NCBI GenBank assembly: GCA_017508875.1
Contig: JAFWQX010000066.1
Coordinates: forward strand, 1,584 to 65,583
DNA length: 64,000 nucleotides
From: Clostridia bacterium
GTDB lineage: Bacteria; Bacillota; Clostridia; UBA1212; UBA1255
Direction of reading: 5' to 3'
Both the position numbers and the translations under genes were made by a program. This document shows positions 23,971-24,236 of this stretch, in pieces. A model generated the notes under the pieces. The model did not search any database and had not been told where the DNA came from. It saw only the letters and a program-made list of their open reading frames with translations. The stretch's first letter is position 1, and each line of letters opens with the position of its first letter.

Positions 23971-24046
23971 CGCGGGGTAGAGCAGCTGGTAGCTCGTCGG
24001 GCTCATAACCCGGAGGTCGTTGGTTCAAATCCTTCCCCCGCAACCA
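23971..24046 (+). tRNA. Initiator tRNA-fMet (anticodon CAT), CCA encoded
   Basis: C1:A72 mismatch at top of acceptor stem (CGCGGGG/CCCCGCA), three consecutive G:C pairs in anticodon stem (TCGGG-CTCATAA-CCCGG), 76 nt; note two T:T oppositions in T stem. Confidence 0.8.
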
Positions 24047-24049
24047 AAA

Positions 24050-24085
24050 AAGCAAGGCATCCGTCAGGGTGCCTTGTTTTTTTGG
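24050..24085 (+). terminator. Rho-independent terminator after tRNA-fMet
   Basis: gcaaggcatccgtcagggtgccttg + TTTTTTTGG. Confidence 0.7.
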
Positions 24086-24113
24086 TGGGGAAGAAAAGTC
24101 TGGCAGGGAAGGT

Positions 24114-24236
24114 CCGGGTTATGAGCACGACGAGCGGGCACCGCAAAGGGCGCGAAGCGATAACCCGGAGGTCGTTGGTTCAAATCCTTCCCCCGCAGCC
24201 ATACCACTTTAGCACTTTAATGTGGTAAATTTTCAC
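24114..24236. repeat. Degenerate tRNA-fMet remnant: inverted copy of anticodon arm (24114-24135) followed by direct copy of tRNA 3' half (24160-24197) and conserved tail; att-like scar
   Basis: ataacccggaggtcgttggttcaaatccttcccccgca duplicated exactly from 24003-24044; tail cataccactttagcactttaatgtggtaaattttcac recurs at 26425, 27875(partial), 30851. Confidence 0.65.

Follow-up and report, generated by a model that had tools for sequence, protein, structure and literature searches.

Direct and inverted tRNA pieces behind a Clostridia initiator tRNA gene probably derive from a conserved composite module

When an integrase crosses over within the anticodon loop or the T loop of a tRNA gene, it duplicates the 3' segment of that gene as attL and attR; the anticodon loop is a classic crossover position for tyrosine integrases. 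Integration sites in tRNA and tmRNA genes were reportedly sorted into sublocation classes by Williams in 2002. Copies of tRNA 3' ends also mark the tyrT 3' repeats of Escherichia coli, the RtT RNA family (RF00391), in which each repeat unit ends in such a copy; GOLLD and ROOL are structured RNAs found beside tRNA genes in phages and prophages. In Dehalococcoides, islands are stacked in tandem at the 3' end of the tRNA-like gene ssrA and separated by repeats of that end, with a large serine recombinase beside attL on the reverse strand; some of these islands lack integration genes and were interpreted as cis-mobilizable (PMC3146451).

How does a duplicated tRNA segment in a Clostridia genome compare with these systems? 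The stretch analyzed here—64,000 nucleotides of contig JAFWQX010000066.1, hereafter the window—carries a tRNA-Met(CAT) gene followed by pieces of itself (Table 1). The gene looks like an initiator: its Rfam score passes the RF00005 gathering score of 29, and its sequence reads C1 opposite A72, A11:T24, and three G-C pairs closing the anticodon stem. Both hexamers of the likely promoter are kept in the nearest species, represented by the best genomic relative, Ruminococcus sp. RUG12823 (L002; SufD 82% identical); a consensus promoter scan omitted this promoter, whose first hexamer matches at only 3/6 positions. SufC- and SufD-like genes lie upstream of the tRNA. Between the SufD stop codon and the promoter runs a 12-bp tandem repeat (23685-23828; GGCTTTCTCAAG and variants), polymorphic in length among contigs of the same species (56, 92, and 116 nt between fixed anchors, in steps that are multiples of 12). 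Farther away, ARAGORN calls a tRNA-Leu(AAG) at 20072-20152 that is absent from the Rfam output at the gathering threshold.

Table 1. Features at and behind the initiator tRNA gene (positions in the window; a slash marks a junction)
Feature	Position	Strand	Evidence
Likely tRNA promoter, TTGCAT, 17 nt, TATAAT	23910..23938	+	Read from sequence
Initiator tRNA-Met (CAT) gene, CCA encoded	23971..24046	+	ARAGORN; Rfam RF00005, 57.4 bits
Terminator hairpin of the tRNA gene and T run	24043..24086	+	Inverted repeat, 20-nt arms, 90% complementary; conserved in L002
Decayed antisense copy of tRNA acceptor 3' strand and T stem (TGGTGGGGAAG ... GGGAAGG)	24087..24112	+	Alignment with L002
Antisense arm, reverse complement of tRNA positions 22-44	24113..24135	+	22/23; aligned with 13 lineages (A3)
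Remaining 3' edge of structured core, GGGCACCGCAAAGGGCGCGAAGCG	24136..24159	+	23/24 identical to L002
Pseudo-tRNA tail, direct copy of tRNA positions 35-76 (41/42)	24160..24201	+	Repeat search
Low-GC (~0.40) defence-type island, without recombinase	24202..31905	.	Composition, Pfam, PADLOC
AbiEi	24338-25402		Pfam, PADLOC
AbiEii-like (weak)	25408-26247		Pfam, PADLOC
Internal junction repeat 1, ...GGTCAAATCCGTTATCTCCACTCGGACCA / TACCGCTTTAGTGC...	26340..26464	+	
HTH-Fic	26580-27494		PADLOC PDC-S04/SoFic
Internal junction repeat 2	27789..27888	+	
DUF6933-PRiA4_ORF3	27932-29080	-	PADLOC PDC-S63
Schlafen/AlbA_2	29119-30630	-	
Internal junction repeat 3	30767..30891	+	
197-aa orphan ORF	31308-31901		

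The original prediction had noticed two T:T oppositions in the T stem of the intact tRNA (GTTGG/CCTTC), which are present as described, and took them as a hint that the functional copy might itself be chimeric. Both strands of that stem lie wholly within the duplicated 3' segment, so joining two halves cannot have made the U:U pairs. At least nine independent contig lineages have the same stem in an intact initiator tRNA gene, combined with any of three T loops and set in differing flanks. We read the U:U pairs as a lineage trait of a working tRNA.

Are the two copies an attL/attR pair, as had been proposed? The 38-mer ATAACCCGGAGGTCGTTGGTTCAAATCCTTCCCCCGCA is indeed duplicated exactly, with two occurrences (24005-24042 and 24160-24197) and no match in any of 100 shuffles. 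The direct repeat begins at A35 in the anticodon loop and extends to 42 nt, its sole difference being ACCA versus GCCA. The inverted piece, complementary to 23992-24014 at all but one position, is a near reverse complement as had been noted, but it spans the D-stem 3' strand and the whole anticodon arm rather than the arm alone. It starts 67 nt past the tRNA 3' end and 27 nt past the terminator hairpin, which corrects the earlier figure of 68 bp after the terminator. The layout recurs in five more contigs of the species, six in all, each assembled independently, and is therefore not an assembly artefact. Short-read assemblies do often break at the repeat, and three contigs (L082, L083, and L089) end at copies; but with the 38-mer unmatched in shuffles, six assemblies in agreement, and the layout conserved across species, we give chance similarity or artefact practically no credence.

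The locus resembles an integrase attL/attR pair in its direct repeat from the anticodon loop to CCA, its low-GC foreign island downstream, and its intact left tRNA. The start of the 42-nt repeat at A35 is where such a repeat would begin, in the anticodon loop or the T loop. The resemblance ends there: the repeats hold neither island nor integrase, they are conserved in island-free loci, and an antisense copy and a covarying core lie between them. In the window, they enclose 113 bp of terminator and tRNA fragments without an ORF, rather than foreign DNA with an integrase inside, and the island lies outside. Relatives without the element do not have a single tRNA end; L143, L095, L120, and L112, all island-free, keep the tRNA and the second copy, which is the very observation that the original prediction had said would argue against an integration-derived duplication. 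The nearest species likewise keeps the tRNA, the inverted piece, and the 3' copy with different downstream DNA. An integrase crossover also leaves the antisense copy unexplained.

Is the arrangement shared beyond the window species? In L002, an identical tRNA and a similar terminator are followed by the inverted piece, about 115 extra bases, GGGCACCGCAAAGGGCGCGGAGCG, an exact 42-nt copy, and then unrelated DNA. A scan of metagenomes with the junction AGCGATAACCCGRAGGTCG returned 65 loci, about 50 of them true instances, mostly from gut and rumen. From these, an intact module of about 200 nt can be described that lies directly 3' of the initiator tRNA and its terminator, on the same strand, in many Clostridia. 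It has four parts. An antisense tRNA copy, which has decayed outside the anticodon arm, comes first and is paired with the second part, a short sense piece (positions 22-31). A folded core of 125-150 nt then takes the place of the anticodon loop, and sense tRNA sequence runs on from position 35 as far as ACCA, in most cases with a terminator of its own behind it. The shared architecture opens with the decayed antisense T arm and acceptor, then (C)CGGGTTATGAG-N-CCGACGAGC, a 2-3-nt turn, and GCTCGTTGGG; after the insert, it closes with ATAACCCGGAGGTCG, the T arm, the acceptor 3' strand, and ACCA, past which comes a terminator or an island. Most lineages have 224-232 nt between the tRNA end and the tail; L002 has 208 nt, and each of the six contigs of the window species has 113 nt. 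Some loci carry the module without any island and others with different islands, and it also occurs in tandem. Searches of the literature for initiator tRNA together with serine recombinases, and for tRNA-like structured RNAs close to integrases, turned up no description of it.

Several loci vary on this theme. On the rumen contig L142 (about 1-2300), the 5' half of a tRNA-fMet, joined to an insert of a second type, precedes an intact tRNA-fMet and two tandem modules, whose antisense copies still span the whole T arm and acceptor; the array suggests unequal crossing-over within it. L157 has this second subtype of insert too, as do, less clearly, L136 and L108. The module tails of L098 and L152 have a T arm (GCAGG...) unlike that of the adjacent intact tRNA (GTTGG or GGAGG); thus, the tail is not always a copy of the neighboring tRNA, and these tails may have arrived by transfer or recombination. 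In L093, L098, and L115, tails are altered directly past the T loop, each reading ...GTC(C)/GAAGT..., which suggests a different recombination point at the T loop and another class of element.

Could the duplication nonetheless be an old att scar? A tyrosine-integrase element might have entered by a crossover in the anticodon loop, restored the tRNA by supplying a 3' half and a terminator from its own sequence, displaced the native half, and then been mostly deleted, leaving a cis-mobilizable remnant of 113-230 bp between attL and attR. The start of the direct repeat in the anticodon loop and the tail mismatch of L098 and L152 both fit an old integration event, as would the two terminators of island-free loci, one per copy, and the duplication of terminator and module around the island of L138. 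We nevertheless consider this history improbable. An integrase lies between the copies in none of the ~50 loci; the 224-232-nt spacing is near constant across lineages; the bases that precede the identity block (GCGAAGCG) are unlike the anticodon-stem 5' strand expected of an integrase core site; and the antisense copy is as foreign to att arms as the covarying helices described next.

Does the module fold? Single-sequence folds of 16 members largely agree, and RNAalifold predicts 59 pairs in nine helices for an alignment of 13 lineages (A3). In that alignment, 93% of cells are paired, compared with 35-46% when partners are slid by 1-3 columns; double changes occur in 26 of the 59 pairs, and none of 500 shuffles reaches any of these measures. 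The covariation is located in the insert, at 13 of the 14 pairs of helix 3 and in helices 4, 6, 7, and 8 too. The tRNA-derived helices CCGGGTTAT:ATAACCCGG and CCGACGAGC:GCTCGTTGG are invariant and thus give no evidence for or against their pairing. G.U pairs on the plus strand (31, versus 9 A.C, with one nearly invariant G.U in helix 2) point to one strand as the functional one, and we infer that the core acts as a single folded strand, either RNA or single-stranded DNA. At the gathering threshold as well as with E up to 10, Rfam returned only tRNA for the window and L002, with RtT far below threshold; with E up to 1, Rfam 15 gave no family for the core of a tRNA-Lys locus (L202). The folded core, well supported by covariation and absent from Rfam 15, appears to represent an undescribed family.

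Known elements of similar outline were also considered. A group I intron in the anticodon loop was rejected: upstream there is neither an acceptor 5' strand nor the 5' part of the D arm, the sense piece terminates in GGG, the loop is short of three bases, no Intron_gpI hit appears at E up to 10, and the insert has only 125-150 nt. Hammerhead-like (TTATGAG...GAAAC), T-box-like, tmRNA-like, and integron attC-like readings failed because core positions or the order of elements misfit or the motif is unconserved across lineages. The RtT repeats of tyrT share with our locus a tRNA gene followed by units ending in a copy of its 3' end, but the RF00391 score is 17.8 bits (E = 0.72) against a gathering score of 45, sequence and structure are unrelated, taxon and tRNA are different, and RtT has no antisense arm. 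Like GOLLD and ROOL, the core is an orphan folded element that adjoins tRNA genes and occurs in phage-derived DNA; unlike them, the module is much smaller, has no Rfam family, and is physically fused to tRNA-derived sequence.

The intact module may be a true noncoding RNA gene—a five-way-junction RNA with a tRNA-like ACCA tail whose function is tied to the cognate tRNA, for example as a mimic or decoy for enzymes or toxins acting on initiator tRNA, with the window copy dead and use by islands a side effect. We regard this as a minority prospect. Strong covariation, the strand-specific G.U excess, and the lack of an Rfam 15 match would all suit it, as would the constant co-orientation of module and tRNA and the terminator behind the module in island-free loci. 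The antisense arm TTATGAG-N-CCGACGAGC is moreover kept in 12/13 lineages, although it lies beyond simple direct-repeat conversion from the tRNA, and the arms switch to tRNA-Lys sequence beside a tRNA-Lys gene. However, no sigma-70-like promoter was found upstream of the module in L112, the locus examined, where a strong terminator stands instead; the antisense part that would supply the acceptor 5' strand has decayed in most lineages; the window species is without the core in all sampled contigs; and elsewhere the core is found free of tRNA arms, on either strand, as tandem copies, and within an ORF.

Where else is the core found? We built a covariance model of the insert (R1; 124 positions, 40 pairs) and searched 1.26 Mb comprising the window, ~70 loci from Clostridia in the neighborhood of SufD, and a selection of loci that bear the module. 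It recovered the modules, one copy without tRNA halves on a Vescimonas fastidiosa chromid, and nothing else. A BLAST search of phage and plasmid collections with the module returned only the tRNA-like 42 nt and one Vescimonas chromid core copy; that record has no feature at the copy, and its gene table omits RNA genes. The chromid copy (L158; pMM35_01, 753.4-754.0 kb) is armless and adjoins SufD and SufC, convergent with both; these are the same gene pair that flanks the window tRNA, and scrambled tRNA-like fragments (GGACGGGTTAT and TGGTGGTGCGGTGGGGAGAGG) lie nearby. Among viral contigs, the core sits in frame within a phage ORF in L173 (114 bits) and just 5' of ORF starts in L274, L348, L289, and L383; the 4.8-kb phage fragment L374 has four cores on the strand opposite its terminase gene. 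Cores without tRNA arms are thus found in either orientation relative to phage genes.

In one further locus (L202), the layout recurs on a different tRNA. Behind a tRNA-Lys(UUU) gene with its terminator come an antisense pseudo-tRNA-Lys, aligned over 68 nt with a single exact run of 21 nt; three cores in tandem; and a sense pseudo-tRNA-Lys (positions 8-56). Because the order of tRNA, terminator, antisense copy, core, and sense copy is seen with both tRNA-Lys and tRNA-fMet, it has arisen or been rebuilt on two tRNAs. The near full-length antisense and sense copies of this locus are a layout that integrase crossover would not make, a further point against the att-scar history.

Armless copies on either strand, one of them inside an ORF, are no less compatible with a mobile palindromic repeat than with a dedicated RNA gene. 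Like REP/REPIN sequences and the mini-elements of IS200/IS605, the core is a two-hairpin unit of ~120 nt that is intergenic in hosts and phages, is sometimes tandem, has covarying stems, and favors one strand. It differs from them in its low copy number, as measured by the R1 search of 1.26 Mb of mostly Clostridia loci, and in its tie to inverted pseudo-tRNA arms; no transposase or full-length parent was found. In the loci examined, a search for a full-length insertion sequence with core hairpins as its ends found none, nor did it find core ends as a pair 0.25-4 kb apart, save for the separate copies in L374.

What remains of the module in the window? Of the four parts of the full module, the antisense arm and the tail are still present in the window, whereas the sense piece is gone and the folded core is reduced to 24 nt at its 3' edge. 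Alignment with L002 maps a deletion of the 115 nt that precede position 24136 in relatives, between GACGAG and CGGGCACC. R1 scores 24.4 bits (E = 0.056) over 24048-24159, whereas intact copies score 58-128 bits in the same search. The surviving parts can be placed on the common fold: the antisense arm is equivalent to the 5' strand of both helix 1 and helix 2, and the core edge to the 3' strand of helix 6 plus a CGC-GAA-GCG mini-hairpin. The decayed segment before the arm, kept in a longer version in L142, includes a 19-nt local insertion in pairwise alignment with L002, and the minimum-free-energy fold pairs its GGGAAGG with CCTTCCC of the 3' copy. As the loss removed the sense piece and nearly the whole core, the window copy reads as a deletion derivative, a pseudo-module rather than an intact member, which limits its direct interest.

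Foreign DNA begins where the module ends. GC content falls from 0.53 to 0.40 exactly at the 3' copy and is back to 0.58 past ~31900. The resulting 7.7-kb island has its left edge directly after the pseudo-tRNA tail; its right boundary would lie at 31905, as judged solely from GC and the flanking alcohol dehydrogenase gene. Pfam finds no recombinase in the island, and tblastn with the serine recombinases of relatives finds nothing across the whole window. No third copy of the tRNA 3' end closes the island within three mismatches, and its right end has no att-like repeat. Exact-protein look-ups (SufD, AbiEi, Fic, and alcohol dehydrogenase) found no island-free allele in the same species; the contigs found either bear the island or are broken at the repeat. 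A 712-aa ORF of the window and a 711-aa ORF adjoining the tRNA in L002 show no homology. Elsewhere in the window, a second strong GC dip (55001-58000; 0.32-0.36), with plus-strand ORFs at 55679-57199 and 57223-57870, is probably another foreign insertion.

Three direct repeats of ~110 nt, 83-88% identical and present nowhere else in the window, separate the gene modules of the island. They share GGT(T)CAAATCC ... CCA followed by TACC.CTTTAG... with the region of the 3' copy but are only loosely similar to the tRNA itself. On the left they are similar to the island right ends seen in L118 and L093, and on the right to the DNA after 24202; by this comparison, they would be attP-like junctions of stacked or fused elements. 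Each repeat also contains a micro-ORF, MRAGAVNT-stop (26358-26384, 27807-27833, and 30785-30811), preceded by GGAGG in two of the three copies, which differ only by synonymous changes and in the stop codon used.

How do islands of relatives relate to the module? In L104, L109, L111, L114, L117, L002, and others, they begin right after the ACCA or GCCA of the tail. About 1 kb into the islands of L109, L111, and L114, the reverse strand encodes a protein with Resolvase, Recombinase, Zn_ribbon_recom, and DUF4368 domains. L110 has a partial ORF with Recombinase and Zn_ribbon_recom domains at the same position, and an ORF in L117, a locus outside the domain scan, is clearly homologous to these island serine recombinases. 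The same chromosomal flanks are seen in three states: no island in L143, an island after the module in L109, and a module on both sides in L138, where a 2.1-kb island remnant is bounded on the left by one module's tail and on the right by a terminator and a complete module. Islands of relatives that carry large serine recombinases can also begin exactly past the ACCA of the real tRNA. In L118 and L093, the right ends of islands (...AAATCCGTTATC...ACTCGTACCA) abut the terminator of the real tRNA. With islands at the tail ACCA and right ends at the terminator of the real tRNA, both tRNA and pseudo-tRNA ends are used. Large serine recombinases would, to judge from junction positions, insert islands at the ACCA junction. 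The proposed signature of integration and excision at a tRNA gene therefore survives in part: the site is a hotspot with a real foreign island, but the copies are not that island's attL and attR.

The picture known from Dehalococcoides ssrA fits both the window island with its three internal repeats and the islands of L109, L111, and L114. An island at the 3' end with a serine recombinase on the reverse strand is seen in L109, L111, L114, L117, and L110; in the window, the island starts at the matching place, and the recombinase is absent. Repeats resembling the 3' end and separating islands have their counterpart in the three internal repeats. In contrast to ssrA, these repeats are loosely tRNA-like, and the first landing site is a pseudo-tRNA module, not a gene.

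We favor, with a probability of about 0.65, the reading that the tRNA pieces of the window are the remains of a conserved composite module behind the initiator tRNA and that the tail of this module is a second attachment site for islands. It builds on the conservation of the module, its fold, the deletion in the window, and the island junctions of relatives. Under this reading, an inverted and a direct tRNA copy placed around a recurrent palindromic core, rather than an integrase crossover, would have created the duplication, and the window species would then have lost the 115 nt. The tail would retain a role at the DNA level, as a duplicate tRNA 3' end targeted by island-borne large serine recombinases, so that islands could land behind the decoy tail as well as behind the real tRNA. 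Behind the window tail, a composite island would have landed, probably several related elements joined at attP-like junctions, and would later have lost its recombinase.

As to the nature of the module, three options are live: a resident RNA gene, a mobile palindromic DNA element, and an old miniature integrative element. The tRNA-Lys case and the core copies in phages weigh against the last of these. Tentatively, and with clearly less than even confidence, we suggest that the intact module belongs to an undescribed class of element—a core shared with phages of gut Clostridia and clamped by antisense and sense copies of the upstream tRNA—and that it works, in a strand-specific way, as an RNA or single-stranded DNA device linked to this tRNA. 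This class would comprise fMet modules in at least 13 lineages and a Lys-UUU version in one, with the window copy dead. Its possible roles include an ACCA-tailed tRNA mimic or decoy and a portable landing pad that islands both carry and use.

Island borders are routinely drawn from partial tRNA copies beside tRNA genes, which are taken for att scars. At this locus, such a reading would misplace the border, because the duplicated segment is part of a conserved resident module and the island begins past it. The module gives islands a second target that spares the essential initiator tRNA and its terminator, and it can be duplicated along with islands, as in L138. With its covariation, its absence from Rfam 15, its occurrence in chromosomes and phages, and its tRNA-specific arms, the core is a concrete candidate for experiment.
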